UHGV virus genome: UHGV-0040432
Source: a virus
Length of the DNA: 39,935 nucleotides
Direction: 5' to 3' (one strand)
A program made the translations under genes and the position numbers. The notes under the pieces are model-generated. The model was not told the DNA's origin and ran no database searches. It saw only the letters and a program-made list of their open reading frames with translations. Shown here in pieces: positions 4,945 through 39,885 of the stretch (the first letter of the stretch is position 1; every line of letters starts with the position of its first letter).

Positions 4945-5815
4945 GGTTTTACCCTCGTTAAGGCGGCTGCCACCGCCGAACTTTCTCCATACACAACAGA
5001 GAAGGGCATCTGCATTGGTCCGCGGCTTGCAGGGACCGCTTTCTTTTTGCCCGGGTGGATTGGGTTATGAGCCCGTCGCCCGGTGATGCCCTTTTCTGTT
5101 GCGTAAAAAGGGCGGTACCGAGGTAGAACATTATCTTCGTCCCCCTTGCATAAGGTTGAAGACCCTGGTACCGCCAAGACTACACACAGCAATACTGGAA
5201 CTACGGTTATCACGGTCCTAAGCGTGATTTGGTTGTGGTGGCCGGTGCTGCGATATTCCGGCATGGGTTGATTACCAGTGACGCACCCTTTCGGGACACT
5301 CCCTCACGGTTTAGCGCATCAGCCTGCGCATTCACCACAACGAAGAGAACATTGCCGGTGTTCGAATCGAACGAACCTTTTCCCTGCCCAACCCTCCCAA
5401 CTAAATGGGACTGTCTGGAATCGAACCAGCACTTATGCCTTGCTCGTCAATGTTCTCATCGTTGTGCCCTGAAAAAGGCTGGCGGTTACCGGACAAGTGG
5501 GAAAACACCGGGCCGCCAGAACAGGGAGTTACTTGTTATAGCTTTGGCCTGCTTTTAACCACATCAGGCGCGGTGGTAGGTATCTTCGGGCGGGGTGCTA
5601 AGGGGGTGATTAGCCCTTGCCCTTAACACTCCTGCTGGTTTTGGTATTCCTGGCTTGGGTATCGCCACCAGCTATAGGAATTTGACTACGAGTCGCGGTT
5701 AATCAGACCGCGTCTCTGTTACCCCTCCCGAAGACACCTGTCAGCGAATCATCCGGTTATTCATACGCCACCGGCGGCTACTTCGTGGGCGTCCTGCCTG
5801 TTCGCTATGGAGTAG
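4945..5815 (-). other. ORF-free leader of the PL transcript; candidate structured noncoding RNA region
   Basis: No minus-strand ORF of 60 aa or more between 5265 and 5922; plus-strand ORFs here overlap in three frames with implausible composition; several GC-rich inverted repeats. Confidence 0.4.
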
Positions 5816-6958: not shown

Positions 6959-6968
6959 GGGGTTAACC

Positions 6969-7520
6969 GTGGGTAACGAACCTATTTGGAAAGTTGAACG
7001 CCAGCCAGCCTGGCTGGTGGTAGCGATTAAAAGAACGATTACCGATCTACCTGGTGGTTATGCCGAGGCGGCGGAATGGTTGGGCGTGACAGAGAACGCA
7101 TTGTTTAACCGCCTTCGTGTCGACGGGGATCAGATCTTCCCTATGGGATGGGCGATGGTATTACAGAAAGCCGCCGGTGTTAGCTACATAGCTGATGCGT
7201 TTTCTCGCCAAACAGATAACGGGATCCATATCCCGGGTGCGGCACCAGAAACAGAGAACGAAGAGATTGGCTTAAAACTGGCTGAGCTGGTGGGCAGGCT
7301 TGGTGACCTGGTTAACGCATATCGTCGATACATCGATGATGGTGTGGTTGATAAAGGGGAGTGGGACAGTCTGAACGAAATCGCCTACCAGTTCCGGGTA
7401 ACGCTTATGACGTTTCTGAACCTGATTTCACGAGTCTATTGCCTTCCAGAAAAGAGTGACGCCCGCGAGTGTGCAGCTCCGGGCGCCTTGGCGAACAACT
7501 CTTCGAGTATGGAGAAATAA
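6969..7520 (+). CDS. CII-like regulatory protein
   Basis: 183-aa ORF with GTG start directly after cro; HTH-like AEWLGVTENALFNRLR; positional analogy to lambda cII. Confidence 0.5.
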   Translation: MGNEPIWKVERQPAWLVVAIKRTITDLPGGYAEAAEWLGVTENALFNRLRVDGDQIFPMGWAMVLQKAAGVSYIADAFSRQTDNGIHIPGAAPETENEEIGLKLAELVGRLGDLVNAYRRYIDDGVVDKGEWDSLNEIAYQFRVTLMTFLNLISRVYCLPEKSDARECAAPGALANNSSSMEK

Positions 7521-34919: not shown

Positions 34920-35472
34920 GTTTCGATCTCTGCTTCCTCCAGGCGCATTTCATGAAGAGCGGGCGCAGGAGCAGGCCAGCGCTGAGCAAATCGCCACCCT
35001 CGATACCAACATGGTGCGCAAGTCCAAAAATCCTGACACCTGTCCGGCGCATCTTCTCCCCTGGCTGGCCTGGGAGCATGCCGTTGATTTCTGGGATGAC
35101 GGCTGGACAGAGGCGCAGAAGCGACAGGTGATAAAAGATGCCGCTTATGTTCATCAGCACAGGGGAACGGCCGGGGCGGTACGCCGTTCTCTCGGGTCTG
35201 TGAACCTGCCCACAACCGTGGTTGAGTGGTGGGAAGACACGCCGCGCGCTGAACCTTACACCTTCCGGATCGAAGTACAGAGCAGTGAGGGGGTCAGCGA
35301 CGCTCTCTATCATCAGATCCGCCAGCTCACCGATCGGGCCAAGAACCTGCGCAGCTATCTGAGCAGAATCGATGTGATGGCGAATGTGGGTATGGACGGG
35401 GCTTTTTATATTTCGGGTGCGACAACAGCGCATATCGATGTGGACATTTTTACCGGGGAATCTCATGGCTGA
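34909..35472 (+). CDS. Baseplate/tail protein I (gpI-like)
   Basis: 187-aa ORF between the J-like gene and the tail fibre gene. Confidence 0.65.
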   Translation: MTAKFRSLLPPGAFHEERAQEQASAEQIATLDTNMVRKSKNPDTCPAHLLPWLAWEHAVDFWDDGWTEAQKRQVIKDAAYVHQHRGTAGAVRRSLGSVNLPTTVVEWWEDTPRAEPYTFRIEVQSSEGVSDALYHQIRQLTDRAKNLRSYLSRIDVMANVGMDGAFYISGATTAHIDVDIFTGESHG

Positions 35473-36868
35473 TTACTACTCAATTATCACTAACCGGGGT
35501 AAAGAACTGGAAGCGGAGGCGCTGGCCAGTGGTCGCCTGATTGTACTGACTCACTTTGTGGTGGGGGACAGTAATGGCAAGCAGGTTAAACCCGATCCGT
35601 CGCAAATCCGGTTGATCAATGAAACGTACCGGGGAGATATCGCTGAGCTGGTGGTGTCACCGGAGCAGTCCACGCAGTTAATGGCAAAAATCGTTCTGCC
35701 GACCGGGGTTGGTGGATTCACCGTTCGCGAAGTCGGTTTAATGACTGACGCCGGAGAGCTTTACGCGGTGGCAAACTGCCCATCGATCGATAAGCCGGTT
35801 GGTGGTGTCAGCGTTAACATGCAGTTTCGCCTGGCGGTATCAGATACCTCAAATATCACGCTGAATGTTGCTACAGGTGACGGCTTATTCCTGCGCATTG
35901 ACCAGAACCTGAAAGAGATAAAAGCGCGGGGCGCGGAAGCACAAAAAACGTCGCGTGAATCCATTGGTGTCCTCGATGGCACGACACAACAAAGAGGGCT
36001 GGTTCAACTTAACAGTGCGGTGAACAGCACTAGTGAAACGCAGGCTGCCACCCCTGCCGCAGTTAAAATCGCAATGGATAATGCGAATGCGCGGCTGGCT
36101 AAAGACCGGAACGGCGGTGACATTCCGAATGTCGCATTATTTCTACAAAACCTTGGTATAGACCGCATCGACCAGGACTCAAACGAAACACGCATCTGGT
36201 CGCCTGATGGAAAAAACTACATTTTTGTTCAAAACGGAGTCTGGGGTGCATATTCAATCAATTCTCCCGCCGGAGCATTATCTCTGGGGTTAGGGTTTGG
36301 CGGGACGGGCGCTACAGACGCTGCGGGGGCAAGGACCAATCTTGGGTTAGGAGACTCTTCTACGCGAGATGTCGGCACTGTATCTGGAACTGTTGCTGCT
36401 GGTGATGATAGCCGTATCACAGGCGCAATGCAGCAAAACCAAAATGGTAATGACATCCCTGATAAAGCTGAGTTCAGAAGTAACATCGGGCTTGGCTCTG
36501 CCGCAACAAGAGCGGTCGGGAACGGCGCAAACCAGATCCCTGACATGAGTTTCTTTTCTGCAGCACTGGCTATCAATGGATGGGCAAAACTGCCAAACGG
36601 GCTAATCATTCAGCAGGGAACATCTACAGCAGCCACTCCATCAAGCCCTGATGTTCTGGTTAACTTCCCAATTCCATTCCCAACAGGGGTTTTACATATT
36701 GGTGAGCACGACTCAAATGGCGGTCTGTCTATGACACTCTGGCAGCTCAATAACATTACAAGAACCGCTTTTTATGCCGGTGCTCTTGGTGGCGTTACTC
36801 GTGGAAATACAACCATTCGGGCTCTTGCCACGTCTGCTGCATGTAACTGGTTTGCAATAGGATATTAA
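35465..36868 (+). CDS. Tail fibre protein (P2 gpH-like N-terminus, Gly-rich repetitive C-terminus)
   Basis: N-terminal segment REVGLMTDAGELYAVANCP resembles the conserved gpH region; start at the ATG overlapping the upstream stop. Confidence 0.75.
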   Translation: MADYYSIITNRGKELEAEALASGRLIVLTHFVVGDSNGKQVKPDPSQIRLINETYRGDIAELVVSPEQSTQLMAKIVLPTGVGGFTVREVGLMTDAGELYAVANCPSIDKPVGGVSVNMQFRLAVSDTSNITLNVATGDGLFLRIDQNLKEIKARGAEAQKTSRESIGVLDGTTQQRGLVQLNSAVNSTSETQAATPAAVKIAMDNANARLAKDRNGGDIPNVALFLQNLGIDRIDQDSNETRIWSPDGKNYIFVQNGVWGAYSINSPAGALSLGLGFGGTGATDAAGARTNLGLGDSSTRDVGTVSGTVAAGDDSRITGAMQQNQNGNDIPDKAEFRSNIGLGSAATRAVGNGANQIPDMSFFSAALAINGWAKLPNGLIIQQGTSTAATPSSPDVLVNFPIPFPTGVLHIGEHDSNGGLSMTLWQLNNITRTAFYAGALGGVTRGNTTIRALATSAACNWFAIGY

Positions 36869-36869
36869 G

Positions 36870-37298
36870 ATGAACAAATATTTATATGACGCTAGGACGA
36901 ATGCCTTTTACCCATTAAGCCTTCAGGGGGATTATGAAGCGGCCAACACCTGGCCGGCGAGTGGTGTGGAAGTTGATGATGACGTTTTTAAAACATTTCA
37001 ATCACCACCTCCGGGTAAAATGATGGTGGCCGGTAAAGATGGCTATCCGGCATGGGCTGATGTTCCTCCACCATCCAAAGAAAACATTGTTGCTGCCGCT
37101 GAAATTGAGAAACAGTCCAAGATTGATCAAGCTAACGACTATATGAACAGTAAGCAATGGCCCGGGAAGGCCGCTATGGGGCGATTGAAAGATTCAGAAA
37201 AGGTGCAATACAACGCCTGGCTGGATTATTTGGATGAACTGGAGGCTGTGGATACAGCGGCTGCGCCAGACATTAAATGGCCTGAAAAACCAGAATAG
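36870..37298 (+). CDS. Tail fibre assembly protein (Tfa, gpG-like)
   Basis: 142-aa ORF directly after the fibre gene with Tfa-like composition. Confidence 0.7.
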   Translation: MNKYLYDARTNAFYPLSLQGDYEAANTWPASGVEVDDDVFKTFQSPPPGKMMVAGKDGYPAWADVPPPSKENIVAAAEIEKQSKIDQANDYMNSKQWPGKAAMGRLKDSEKVQYNAWLDYLDELEAVDTAAAPDIKWPEKPE

Positions 37299-37367
37299 GA
37301 ACGTTTACGAAAATGAATATTTCAGGTGCAAATGGCATGATCCCGGCTTTTAGCGAAGGGATTGATC

Positions 37368-37919
37368 ATGCTGATAGGCTATGTACGGGTGTCAACAAAT
37401 GACCAGAACACAGCATTGCAGAGAAACGCGCTTGAGTGTGCAGGATGTGAGCTGATATTCGAAGACAAGATAAGTGGAAAAACGTCAGACCGACCAGGCT
37501 TAAAAAAGGTGCTCAGAACATTATCAGAAGGTGACACGCTGGTGGTCTGGAAGCTGGATCGTCTCGGTCGTAGTATGCGGCATCTTGTCGTGTTGGTCGA
37601 AGAAATGAGGGAACGCGGCATAAACTTCCGTAGCCTGACCGACAGTATAGATACCTCCACACCGATGGGACGCTTTTTCTTTCATGTCATGGGAGCGCTT
37701 GCGGAGATGGAGAGAGAGCTTATTGTTGAGCGAACACGGGCTGGTTTAGCAGTTGCGCGCGAAGATGGTCGGATCGGCGGCAGACGGCCAAAGTTAACTG
37801 CTGAAGAGTGGGCTCAGGCTGGAAGGTTGATTGCTGCTGGAGAGTCACGAAAACGTGTGGCTATAATTTATGATGTAGGGGTGTCAACGCTATACAAAAA
37901 ATTTCCTGCGCGGTGTTGA
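37368..37919 (+). CDS. Serine recombinase, DNA invertase (Hin/Gin/Cin/Pin family)
   Basis: N-terminal MLIGYVRVSTNDQ with catalytic Ser; C-terminal HTH; GAAGGG Shine-Dalgarno 8 nt upstream. Confidence 0.85.
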   Translation: MLIGYVRVSTNDQNTALQRNALECAGCELIFEDKISGKTSDRPGLKKVLRTLSEGDTLVVWKLDRLGRSMRHLVVLVEEMRERGINFRSLTDSIDTSTPMGRFFFHVMGALAEMERELIVERTRAGLAVAREDGRIGGRRPKLTAEEWAQAGRLIAAGESRKRVAIIYDVGVSTLYKKFPARC

Positions 37920-38047
37920 GAAGATGCCACCGCGTCGTCGTATGCAAGAACGGGCGGCGGCGGACTGGCGAACGTTCGATAGTGCGAGTATTGAATGATT
38001 GCCAGTCACGGCGGATTGTACTTAAGCGATATGATGGTTCAAGGCGT

Positions 38048-38290
38048 TTAATCTGAAACCAGCCACATATCAGCCTCTTCAAACATTTCCTGAACAGTAC
38101 GGCTTATCTGTTCCTTCTCATGCTTGCTGGCGTCAGTGTTGATCGCCGGCAGTGTCATCATCGGTTTAACCCGAACATCAGCATCGGGGAAGATCCGGTG
38201 AACCCTCTTACTCAATTCGCCCAGAATGATATCTTTTGCACCAGGCAGACCATCAAAATTCCTTTTGTCATAAACGAGTTCCACGAACAT
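38048..38290 (-). CDS. dinI: DinI-like protein (DinI/MsgA family)
   Basis: 80 aa; pattern LxGELSKRxHRxFPDADVRVKP ... QEMFEEADMWLVSD matches DinI as recalled. Confidence 0.7.
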   Translation of the reverse strand: MFVELVYDKRNFDGLPGAKDIILGELSKRVHRIFPDADVRVKPMMTLPAINTDASKHEKEQISRTVQEMFEEADMWLVSD

Positions 38291-38305
38291 TGCTTATTGC
38301 TCCTT

Positions 38306-38325
38306 TACTGGATGGATATACAGTA
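38306..38325. promoter_or_regulatory. LexA (SOS) box between divergent dinI-like and umuD'-like genes
   Basis: TACTGGATGGATATACAGTA, i.e. CTGG-N8-ACAG, one mismatch from the CTGT-N8-ACAG core. Confidence 0.65.
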
Positions 38326-38368
38326 TTTATACTGTGTTTTTATCCGGTATTCAAGAGAGGGCGTAAAC

Positions 38369-38758
38369 ATGGGCTTTCCTTCACCTGCGGCAGATTATGT
38401 TGAAACACGAATCTCCCTCGATCAGCAGTTAATCAGCCAGCCTGCAGCGACTTATTTCATGCGGGCATCGCGTTCACATTTCAGGGAAGGGATAATCCAG
38501 GGAGCGTTGCTTGTTGTGGATGCGTCACTTACTGCCTGCGATGGTTCACTGCTGATATGTGCAATCGACGGGGAATTCAGGATCAAGCGATACCGAACTC
38601 ACCCTCAGCCCCACCTGATAAATCTGGAGAACGGGAGAAGGGAAGCGCTGCCAGTAGATGATGACGCTTACAGTTCTGCACCCGCTATATTCGGGGTGAT
38701 CACGTACATCATTAATGATGCTAGGAATGGAGAGTTCGACGATTGCCCAGTTATGTAA
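38369..38758 (+). CDS. UmuD'-like protein (S24 family; P1 HumD-type, lacking the N-terminal cleavable tail)
   Basis: Starts M-GFPSPAADYVE, aligning with the residue that follows the UmuD self-cleavage site; GEFRIKR retains the Lys region; strong SD upstream. No umuC-like gene follows. Confidence 0.65.
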   Translation: MGFPSPAADYVETRISLDQQLISQPAATYFMRASRSHFREGIIQGALLVVDASLTACDGSLLICAIDGEFRIKRYRTHPQPHLINLENGRREALPVDDDAYSSAPAIFGVITYIINDARNGEFDDCPVM

Positions 38759-38760
38759 TG

Positions 38761-38791
38761 AAAAAAAAGCCCGTTTATACGGGCTTTCGTT
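38761..38791. terminator. Bidirectional intrinsic terminator between the umuD'-like gene and the integrase gene
   Basis: A8 run, AAGCCCG-tttata-CGGGCTT hairpin, T-rich tail. Confidence 0.7.
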
Positions 38792-39885
38792 TAGTCATTT
38801 TTTCTGGACTTTTGCAATTGTTCAAGCCTTACATGAAGTGATTTAGGGAATAGCTCTGTGTAAACTTGCCACAGTACATTCAGCGACCTGTGGCCAGTAA
38901 CTTGGGCCACTTCCTCTATACTGAATCCAGCTTCAAAAAGTCTGCTTGCGCCTTCCCTTCTAAGGTCATGATATCTTAGATCCTCAATTCCAAGAGCACT
39001 TCTTACCCTTTGGAATCCTGCCGTTACGGAACTGCTTATATAAGGGAATATTAGCTCTGACTTACGCGGCTGGCGCTGGACAATATCCCAGGCTTCTCCG
39101 AGTAAAGCTACATTCATGTGGTTCCCTTCTTTTTTACGTGGATCCTTCCTATCTCTCACCAGCACTGATTTTTGTTTTTCATCGATATCATCCCATCGCA
39201 GACGACAAACCTCGCCAATGCGCATGCACGATAAAACCGAAAACATCAGAATATCGACGAATGGGATTTTTGATCCCCGCCTTTGTGAACGTTGCTTCAG
39301 GCCTTCGATCAGCATGTCTAATTCTTCAGATGCTGGTCGACGACTACGGCGATTTGATTTTCCAATTAGCCCCAATTTAAGGAGATGAGGTCGCGCCTCT
39401 TTTGCTGGATTGCTAGTATAGTTAATGCCATACACTGGCTTTGCACAATCAAGCACGCTTCCAAGATAGCTGACGTCATGGCTTACGGTCGCTGGCCCGG
39501 CTCCTGCATTATTTCGCAATCGACAGTGCTCTATTACGTCATTTGCGGTTAATGACAACAGGGGGATAGCTGCAATGTCGCAGTCAACGAGCATATTAAG
39601 AACATAGCTTTTTGTTCGCCCCGCTTTGCCACCAGCGTTTGGATCATTGATATATTTTTGCAACAAATCACGGACTGTTATTCCGGTAGCATCATCAGAT
39701 GATGGGAGACCATAAAGATCCAGTTCCATAACCCTCTGGGCTCCCCATGTTTTAGCATGCGCCTGTTTTGGGAAGGTTTTACTTTCTCTGAATGTGATAA
39801 CGCCTTTTTCCTTAATTAACACAGTACAACGGTAGCGTGGAGTGCCATCAGATTTTAGTCGTTTCTCTATGTTATAGTATGCCAT
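38791..39885 (-). CDS. int: Tyrosine recombinase, phage integrase
   Basis: 364 aa; C-terminal catalytic region with HDLRR motif and downstream Tyr (LWQVYTE); N-terminal SAM-like domain. Confidence 0.85.
   Translation of the reverse strand: MAYYNIEKRLKSDGTPRYRCTVLIKEKGVITFRESKTFPKQAHAKTWGAQRVMELDLYGLPSSDDATGITVRDLLQKYINDPNAGGKAGRTKSYVLNMLVDCDIAAIPLLSLTANDVIEHCRLRNNAGAGPATVSHDVSYLGSVLDCAKPVYGINYTSNPAKEARPHLLKLGLIGKSNRRSRRPASEELDMLIEGLKQRSQRRGSKIPFVDILMFSVLSCMRIGEVCRLRWDDIDEKQKSVLVRDRKDPRKKEGNHMNVALLGEAWDIVQRQPRKSELIFPYISSSVTAGFQRVRSALGIEDLRYHDLRREGASRLFEAGFSIEEVAQVTGHRSLNVLWQVYTELFPKSLHVRLEQLQKSRKND

Follow-up and report, generated by a model that had tools for sequence, protein, structure and literature searches.

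A collapsed and probably still weakly invertible one-cassette tail-fibre segment in a Chris1-like Citrobacter prophage

We analysed UHGV virus genome UHGV-0040432, a stretch of 39,935 nucleotides (nt) that we refer to as the window. It is a Chris1-like prophage of Citrobacter portucalensis, in which a tail-fibre gene, a tail-fibre assembly gene (tfa) and a DNA invertase gene form a one-cassette derivative of the Gin/Pin-type inversion systems. We consider it probable that the locus is a collapsed segment that remains weakly invertible, flipping the fibre between an ON state (the orientation in the window) and an OFF state, and that its ends also serve as a seam for the exchange of cassettes between prophages. 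A single cassette of this type can still flip, as a related contig demonstrates, and the cassette has moved between unrelated prophages at these very points; an earlier sequence-only reading of the locus had foreseen neither. Invertase-driven fibre switching, single fibre-tfa sets next to an invertase gene (Rac) and the shuffling of modules at crossover sites are already known, and no new mechanism is revealed. What is new is the base-exact demonstration, the half-canonical design of the sites and a natural one-cassette segment caught in the OFF state.

The cassette consists of the variable part of the fibre gene (Sv) and tfa, and it lies between the constant part of the fibre gene (Sc) and the invertase gene (Table 1). 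Serine invertases cut with a 2-bp stagger at the central dinucleotide of their sites, which is TC/GA in Mu and TT/AA in e14. We built a half-site scoring matrix from relatives with two Sv-tfa sets and scored about 80,000 12-mers of the window. The two highest-ranking 12-mers of the entire window are the outer halves of the sites that bound the cassette, at 36141-36152 (15.7 bits) and, as the reverse complement, at 37302-37313 (15.6 bits). These outer halves face each other across the cassette, and their TT and AA centres are complementary. The two crossover sites, inverted with respect to each other, have the same centre; the left one falls within the fibre gene and the right one precedes the invertase gene. 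The inner halves do not rise above background, with -5.2 bits for GGTATAGACCGC and -4.1 bits for AACCAGAATAGG (top 7-10% of random window 12-mers), and neither 26-bp site has the two recognisable 12-bp halves of a palindromic site. We found no inverted repeat shared by the left and right sites.

The sequence-only reading had noticed the left half-site, TTCTACAAAACC, as a hix-like sequence inside the fibre gene, and it is indeed the best-scoring 12-mer of the window, although its count alone is not significant (2 window matches with at most 2 mismatches, vs 2.9 expected). That reading had paired it with a weaker half-site near the end of tfa as the only other candidate. The sequence in question, TGAAAAACC, is present at 37283-37291, but it merely overlaps the degenerate inner half and does not define the crossover; we rejected it as a half-site with an AG centre since the inverted junction described below and all homology breaks put the exchange at AA, 8 bp further on. 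The canonical right outer half on the invertase side, CGTTTACGAAAA, had been overlooked. The suggestion that the second site was too diverged to be seen thus holds for its inner half, but the site exists and its outer half is canonical. The alternative suggestion of a distant site finds no support within the window, which contains no other credible site, although such a site may lie elsewhere in the host genome. A 12-mer at 234-245, TTCAACAAAACC, has one mismatch to the left outer half, but we dismissed it for its AT centre and unrelated partner half; the 26-mer at 234-259 (TTCAACAAAACC AT TCATTGATGGTT) forms a small palindrome of its own (AAACCAT...ATGGTTT) and was judged a chance match. A 26-mer at 39750 that resembles a site was also discarded, as its centre is CC and both its halves are weak.

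The earlier reading had proposed a comparison with relatives that carry complete invertible segments; in this comparison, the outer half-sites and TT/AA centres proved to be conserved. In the two-set relatives (Chris1, Escherichia coli SC476 and e14-like elements), the left sites read TTCTACAAAACC TT GGTTTAGTAGAA or CTCTCGAAAACC TT GGTTTGGGAGAA, and the right sites read (T/C)TCTACNAAACC or TTCTCCCAAACC, followed by AA and CGTTTA(C/T)(A/G)AAAA. The left outer half and centre are the same in the window, Chris1 and SC476, and the right outer half and centre match those of Chris1, SC476 and the e14-like elements. Removal of the 8-bp sequence AGAATAGG from the window would leave a canonical right site, GCCTGAAAAACC AA CGTTTACGAAAA.

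Chris1 (ON041214), the most similar phage, covers 79% of window positions 14000-38900 at 96.7% nucleotide identity. Its locus comprises fibre, tfa, tfa', Sv' and invertase, and an inverted repeat of 52 nt marks the two sites. The two elements share the backbone, the TT/AA centres, an identical left outer half and a nearly identical right one (CGTTTACAAAAA in Chris1 vs CGTTTACGAAAA). In contrast, Chris1 has two tail-to-tail Sv-tfa sets within ~3 kb, flanked by dyad-symmetric sites, whereas the window has a single, unrelated set and degenerate inner halves. The Sc part of the fibre is 97% identical to the Chris1 fibre over residues 1-232, beyond which there is no similarity. At the nucleotide level, homology to Chris1 ends at 36161 and restarts at 37300, and all the megablast matches that reach the invertase gene in the phage and E. 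coli collections start at 37300 (query base 1917).

The same backbone occurs with two sets and the invertase in Chris1, SC476 and a Citrobacter freundii prophage (L154), with one set and the invertase in the window, and with one set and no invertase in five further loci (L155-L159), where an acyltransferase gene takes its place. The presence of the same invertase and outer half-sites in the two-set members bears out the idea, already put forward from the sequence, of a collapsed invertible segment. The acyltransferase-3 gene (PF01757; L155-L159 6602-7684, E. coli and other Enterobacteriaceae) is oppositely oriented between tfa and the DinI gene and is a candidate O-antigen modification moron. 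In the C. freundii two-set locus (L154, CP099254), an Sv' of ~91 residues on the minus strand (6960-7240; start MPFAPEIFIFVNVG...) reads out of the right crossover site and was not called as a gene. Gene callers therefore miss silent fibre tips that are short, and a two-set locus can seem to hold 'one and a half sets'. A Mu-like C. freundii prophage (L141) represents another, internal-deletion route to a one-cassette segment: it has one set and has kept ~150 bp of the 3' end of tfa' (5441-5620, minus strand ...LIRIDPARPVWP), followed by an intact right site, CAGTTTGAAACC AA CCTTTGGTAGAA.

Two other backbones contain the cassette itself (36155-37299), ending at the same points and 98-99% identical in nucleotides: a small element (L005/L006; fibre of 399 residues, invertase of 188) and a Mu-like prophage of C. 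freundii (L027; fibre of 335 residues, invertase of 189). Both have a single set followed by the invertase gene, but their fibre N-termini are unrelated to that of the window and their invertases are, respectively, 55% and 48% identical to its invertase. Homology starts at 36141 in L005 and at 36109 in L027. The breaks fall at TT and AA, and other outer half-sites follow the AA (CCTTTTTTATAA and CCTTTGGTAGAA). In addition, cassettes with at least 89% identity in Sv are joined to at least eight further N-terminal modules, always between ..L-x-x-L and G/R-I/L-D/E-R. The join between constant N-terminus and cassette always lies at the codons of the left site. The small element (L005 1-6100 and L006) lies beside cytochrome bc1 genes in a C. 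freundii assembly and codes for an HTH_3 repressor, Cro, YdaT and three unknown proteins in addition to the fibre, Tfa and invertase; no baseplate or capsid genes were called in it, and it may be an e14-like remnant.

We inverted the cassette in silico. The fibre frame of the inverted window stops after eight codons (...LQNL-PILVFQAI, then stop), and the minus strand between 36155 and 37299 has short open reading frames only, with no second fibre C-terminus or tfa. The sequence-only reading was thus correct in seeing a single fibre/tfa set. The predicted OFF junctions of the window are CTACAAAACCTTCCTATTCTGG and GGTCTATACCAACGTTTACG (also given as CTACAAAACCTTCCTATTCTGGTTTTTCAGG and GATGCGGTCTATACCAACGTTTACGAAAATG).

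A 2.7-kb Logan contig (L140; reads in SRR18474648) matches this prediction. It carries the 3' part of a fibre constant region, one Sv-tfa set and an invertase gene whose product is 85% identical to that of the window. Its cassette, at 68-72% nucleotide identity to that of the window (Sv about 72% identical in amino acids), is inverted relative to both its neighbours. The junctions, TTCTCGAATACC TT CCTATTCTGGTTTGTCAGG and ...GGTCGATACGGTCTAATCC AA CGTTTAAGAAAATG (also written TTCTCGAATACC TT CCTATTCTGG and ...GGTCTAATCC AA CGTTTAAGAAAA), agree base for base with those of the inverted window. The truncated fibre ends in LEYL-PILVCQAI, then stop, which fits the PILVFQAI end that we had predicted before we saw this contig. 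Its right inner half, CCAGAATAGG, is the same as that of the window, and its left inner half is equally poor (-5.1 bits). As its left and right sites have no 31-mer in common, k-mer misassembly cannot account for the contig. A pair of half-canonical sites has thus recombined at TT/AA in nature.

Looking at orientation more broadly, the present element was found ON only, the single-set Logan contig is OFF, and e14-like relatives with two sets occur in both orientations, as in E. coli AH01 vs fEC.1. In AH01 (NZ_CP055251; L023 2966-3712), RefSeq calls the e14-like fibre gene that precedes the invertible segment an 'integrase', which is probably a propagated misannotation. A scan for the inverted right junction in genome contigs gave one match, in an Acidobacteriaceae metagenome-assembled genome that is unrelated by its flanks, and was uninformative. 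The same scan in metagenome contigs gave none; that collection lacks any copy of the cassette, and this result is therefore equally uninformative. A control scan of the metagenomes with a cassette-internal 19-mer returned 112 matches, all in unrelated genes.

We also considered whether short fibre proteins represent OFF states, and rejected them all. P0147 is a frameshifted fibre, P0143 lies at a contig end, and P0133, P0140, P0128 and P0129 are contig-end partials that run on into other Sv modules. These last four, of which P0133 (236 residues) has 75 member sequences, are deposited partial fibres with the present constant region. They stop between a few and a few tens of residues past the crossover site, with P0133 and P0140 the nearest, which shows that breaks at this point are common in short-read assemblies. 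Some contigs end close to the invertase gene (L009, L010, L014, L017 and L018); we did not take this as a sign of inversion heterogeneity, since the ends lie away from the crossover points and are consistent with repeated invertase genes. An apparent break of the fibre gene in a metagenome scaffold (L011, about 2614-2690) is a run of N, i.e. a scaffold gap and not a rearrangement.

The 3' end of the window corresponds to the tail and attachment end of the prophage. Genes for gpW/gpJ/gpI-type baseplate proteins are followed by those of the fibre, Tfa, the invertase, DinI, an S24/UmuD-like protein and a tyrosine integrase. The last three (38048-39885, DinI on the minus strand) close the prophage. 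In identical C. portucalensis copies, the integrase gene adjoins dusA-pspG-qor-dnaB (L003/L013 7606-10552); the prophage is therefore integrated at dusA. Assemblies with this prophage include GCA_003471655.1, GCA_033235525.1 (CP137485.1), GCA_027672235.1 and GCA_027672265.1. Past DinI, another locus (L002, CP137485) has an ABC/HlyD-type exporter and no integrase. The fibre and Tfa belong to the P2 gpH/gpG and Mu S/U type, with a tail-collar N-terminus, a variable C-terminus, a Caudo_TAP domain in Tfa and baseplate genes upstream; the Pfam matches of the fibre are Phage_tail_fib (N-terminal), Phage_fiber_2 and Gp53-like_C. NCBIfam has no informative equivalog for the fibre, Tfa and invertase proteins, and a promoter and terminator scan of 35300-38400 yielded nothing exceeding the shuffled expectation.

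Table 1. Coordinates of the features of the tail-fibre inversion locus in the window
Feature	Position	Strand	Remarks
Tail-fibre gene, P2 gpH / Mu S type	35465-36868	+	467 residues; open reading frame and Pfam
Fibre constant part, Sc	35465-36154	+	
Left crossover site	36141-36166	+	TTCTACAAAACC TT GGTATAGACCGC; inside the fibre gene, at the Sc/Sv boundary
Left outer half	36141-36152		TTCTACAAAACC
Left centre	36153-36154		TT
Left inner half	36155-36166		GGTATAGACCGC
Fibre variable part, Sv	36155-36868	+	
Single Sv-tfa cassette, potentially invertible	36155-37299	+	1,145 bp between the two central dinucleotides
tfa, tail-fibre assembly chaperone gene	36870-37298	+	142 residues; Pfam Caudo_TAP, 1e-32
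Right crossover site	37288-37313	+	AACCAGAATAGG AA CGTTTACGAAAA; just upstream of the invertase gene
Right inner half	37288-37299		AACCAGAATAGG
Right centre	37300-37301		AA
Right outer half	37302-37313		CGTTTACGAAAA
DNA invertase gene, Gin/Pin subfamily of small serine recombinases	37368-37919	+	183 residues; Pfam Resolvase and HTH_7
Putative Fis-dependent recombinational enhancer (expected)	37385-37470	+	Inferred from the alignment of the 5' part of the invertase gene

The invertase gene starts 69 bp past tfa, as the sequence-only reading had stated (last base of tfa at 37298, ATG of the invertase gene at 37368), and 1 bp separates the tfa stop codon from the right central dinucleotide. The invertase shares 79% identity with Mu Gin, for which a structure is available, 88% with PinE of E. 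coli K-12 and 99% with the Chris1 invertase; for Gin and PinE, inversion activity has been demonstrated by experiment. It matches the Resolvase (5e-50) and HTH_7 (3e-14) domains, and PDB entry 3UJ3 at 3e-92. The catalytic columns of small serine recombinases are kept, with a serine aligned with the Gin nucleophile, which we take to be Ser9, and the invariant Arg, Asp and Glu. The gene is intact. Its 5' 200 nt align without gaps and at high identity with Mu gin and K-12 pinE, where coding constraint is a confounding factor. The part that aligns with Mu gin corresponds to the region said to hold the enhancer. In the Hin system, ~100 bp separate the proximal Fis site from the hix site closest to it (PMC3798978).

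The mechanism that we propose is as follows. Invertase dimers held on the strong outer halves would bring the two sites into synapsis, presumably with Fis and an enhancer at the start of the invertase gene, and strand exchange at TT/AA would flip the 1,145-bp cassette at low frequency. As there is no second Sv-tfa set, the flipped state would be OFF rather than a host-range switch: the fibre would be cut to 238 residues (230 native ones plus PILVFQAI), and Sv-tfa would point away from the late operon. Virions released from a flipped prophage would lack the receptor-binding tip; new lysogens would therefore start ON, which would explain the dominance of that state in assemblies. Both sites would also serve as junctions for swapping entire Sv-tfa cassettes between co-resident prophages, which would account for the presence of one cassette in several unrelated backbones. 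The second set was most likely lost when the right site recombined with a pseudo-site at the stop codon of tfa (...AATAGG AA), as suggested by this codon abutting AA.

Several points weigh against this account. The evidence for inversion consists of one short Logan contig from a related but not identical element, and we did not encounter this exact prophage in inverted form. We retrieved 23 contigs by the exact Tfa protein and 18 by the exact invertase protein, and all those with informative flanks are ON. Scans of IMG/VR gave three ON right junctions and no OFF one, too few to weigh, and the six predicted OFF-state proteins are absent from ~15 billion proteins in an exact look-up that does find the ON fibre. 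Both inner halves are at background while canonical sites have two recognisable halves, and inversion efficiency may thus be very low or nil. Conservation of the enhancer region is inseparable from coding conservation, the pointer to a pseudo-site deletion is solely the position of the junction, and an OFF state has no obvious benefit for the phage.

Part of this evidence would fit a locked-ON relic, an account that we regard as rather unlikely though worth serious attention. Each site would then have one usable half, and the persistence of the invertase would reflect either a recent collapse or a role in trans on invertible segments that other prophages carry in the same genome. The lack of inverted copies of this element and the poor inner halves are as expected for a relic, and some same-backbone relatives have no invertase at all. 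Action in trans has precedents: PinQ and PinR, which adjoin single stf-tfa sets in Qin and Rac, are active and invert the P segment of another prophage, e14 (PMC12529663), and a prophage of EC958 (Phi4) with a truncated invertase still inverts, which implies action in trans (PMC4134206). However, the pair of sites in the Logan contig has recombined with the same architecture, an identical right inner half, a left one that is as poor and an 85% identical invertase. Moreover, the cassette has moved between backbones at exactly these points, and the 39.9-kb window offers no other credible site.

An ON/OFF phase switch maintained by selection appears improbable to us. In such a switch, the phage or the lysogen would benefit from turning the fibre off, from the truncated product or from Sv-tfa expression from the opposite side, for instance through a surface or receptor-blocking protein of the StfE2 kind. 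Several backbones, with invertases of three subfamilies, share the layout of a single set plus invertase with this cassette, but cassette transfer explains this recurrence equally well. The identical 25-nt tfa 3' end in diverged tfa genes, described below, could mean that the right site is constrained at the DNA level, although one locus that shares it (L162) has no downstream invertase reading frame of at least 100 residues up to the end of the examined locus. Fibre chimeras made by inversion can act in defence (PMC12529663); the OFF product here gains just eight residues, no alternative open reading frame arises, and ON is strongly dominant in assemblies. Finally, the invertase might be an unrelated passenger and the site-like sequences chance occurrences, as the 12-mer by itself is not over-represented in the window. 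This notion is hardly credible and effectively refuted by the comparative data: the two best 12-mers of the window are the outer half-sites, which point towards one another, relatives with segments in both orientations have conserved them, and homology breaks at the central dinucleotides in every comparison. A weakly invertible segment with exchangeable cassettes remains the reading that we favour.

In its enzyme and in the placement and arrangement of its sites, the locus corresponds to the classical Mu G, e14 P and P1 C systems. As in Mu G/Gin and e14 P/PinE (and in P1 Cin and Salmonella Hin), the sites are of 26 bp with a 12+2+12 organization, the left one at the Sc/Sv boundary and the right one before the invertase gene. 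Gin, Hin, Cin and Pin systems have two alternative, oppositely oriented sets, whereas there is one set here. Thus, Mu G and e14 P switch between two functional fibre tips, while the window has one tip, and hence an ON/OFF flip, and one canonical half per site. The stfR-tfaR-pinR genes of Rac and the pinQ region of Qin in E. coli K-12 likewise have a single side-tail-fibre/tfa set beside a small serine invertase gene. In contrast, PinR is only 38% identical to the present invertase and is transcribed towards the fibre genes, and those prophages are lambdoid.

Iida and Hiestand-Nauer reportedly found (1986/1987) that P1 Cin can use quasi-sites (cixQ), with exchange at sequences that match chiefly in one half and the centre, and rare inversions and deletions as the outcome. 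Those were laboratory plasmid events, whereas the half-canonical sites described here are the resident pair of a natural prophage. Crossover sites are also said to be hot spots of tail-fibre module shuffling, a point made in a 1994 review by Sandmeier. In the Min system of p15B, fibre C-terminal modules are joined to varied N-termini, and here one cassette occurs on at least nine N-termini, joined at the same point. Min differs in having six sites and many segments at one locus, in contrast to single cassettes in many loci.

The right-hand end of the cassette has an additional peculiarity. Some tfa genes that blastn otherwise cannot align have identical 3' ends, consisting of their last 25 nt and the crossover centre (TGGCCTGA-A/C-AAACCAGAATAGGAAC; window 37275-37303, L162 5136-5160, L161 181-205 and L140 1851-1876), and the outer half-sites that follow differ between elements. 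This end may act as a signal in the DNA or mark a seam of recombination within tfa. We tentatively extend our proposal, in a form that we hold to be quite doubtful: half-canonical sites would make single Sv-tfa cassettes mobile, such that co-resident Gin/Pin-type invertases exchange them among unrelated backbones. Recipients would gain a low-frequency ON/OFF switch, and the 25-nt tfa end would act as the right-hand recombination signal.

Collapsed or orphan invertase loci are usually dismissed as decay. For their annotation, the feature to seek is the conserved outer half-site directly ahead of the invertase gene, rather than a palindrome. A one-cassette segment with half-canonical sites can still flip, and prophages annotated as 'fibre-tfa-invertase' may therefore give some fibreless, non-infectious particles, a fraction relevant to prophage induction assays and to phage engineering. 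The base-exact breakpoints are unusually clean evidence that invertase sites are seams along which receptor-binding modules move between unrelated phages.

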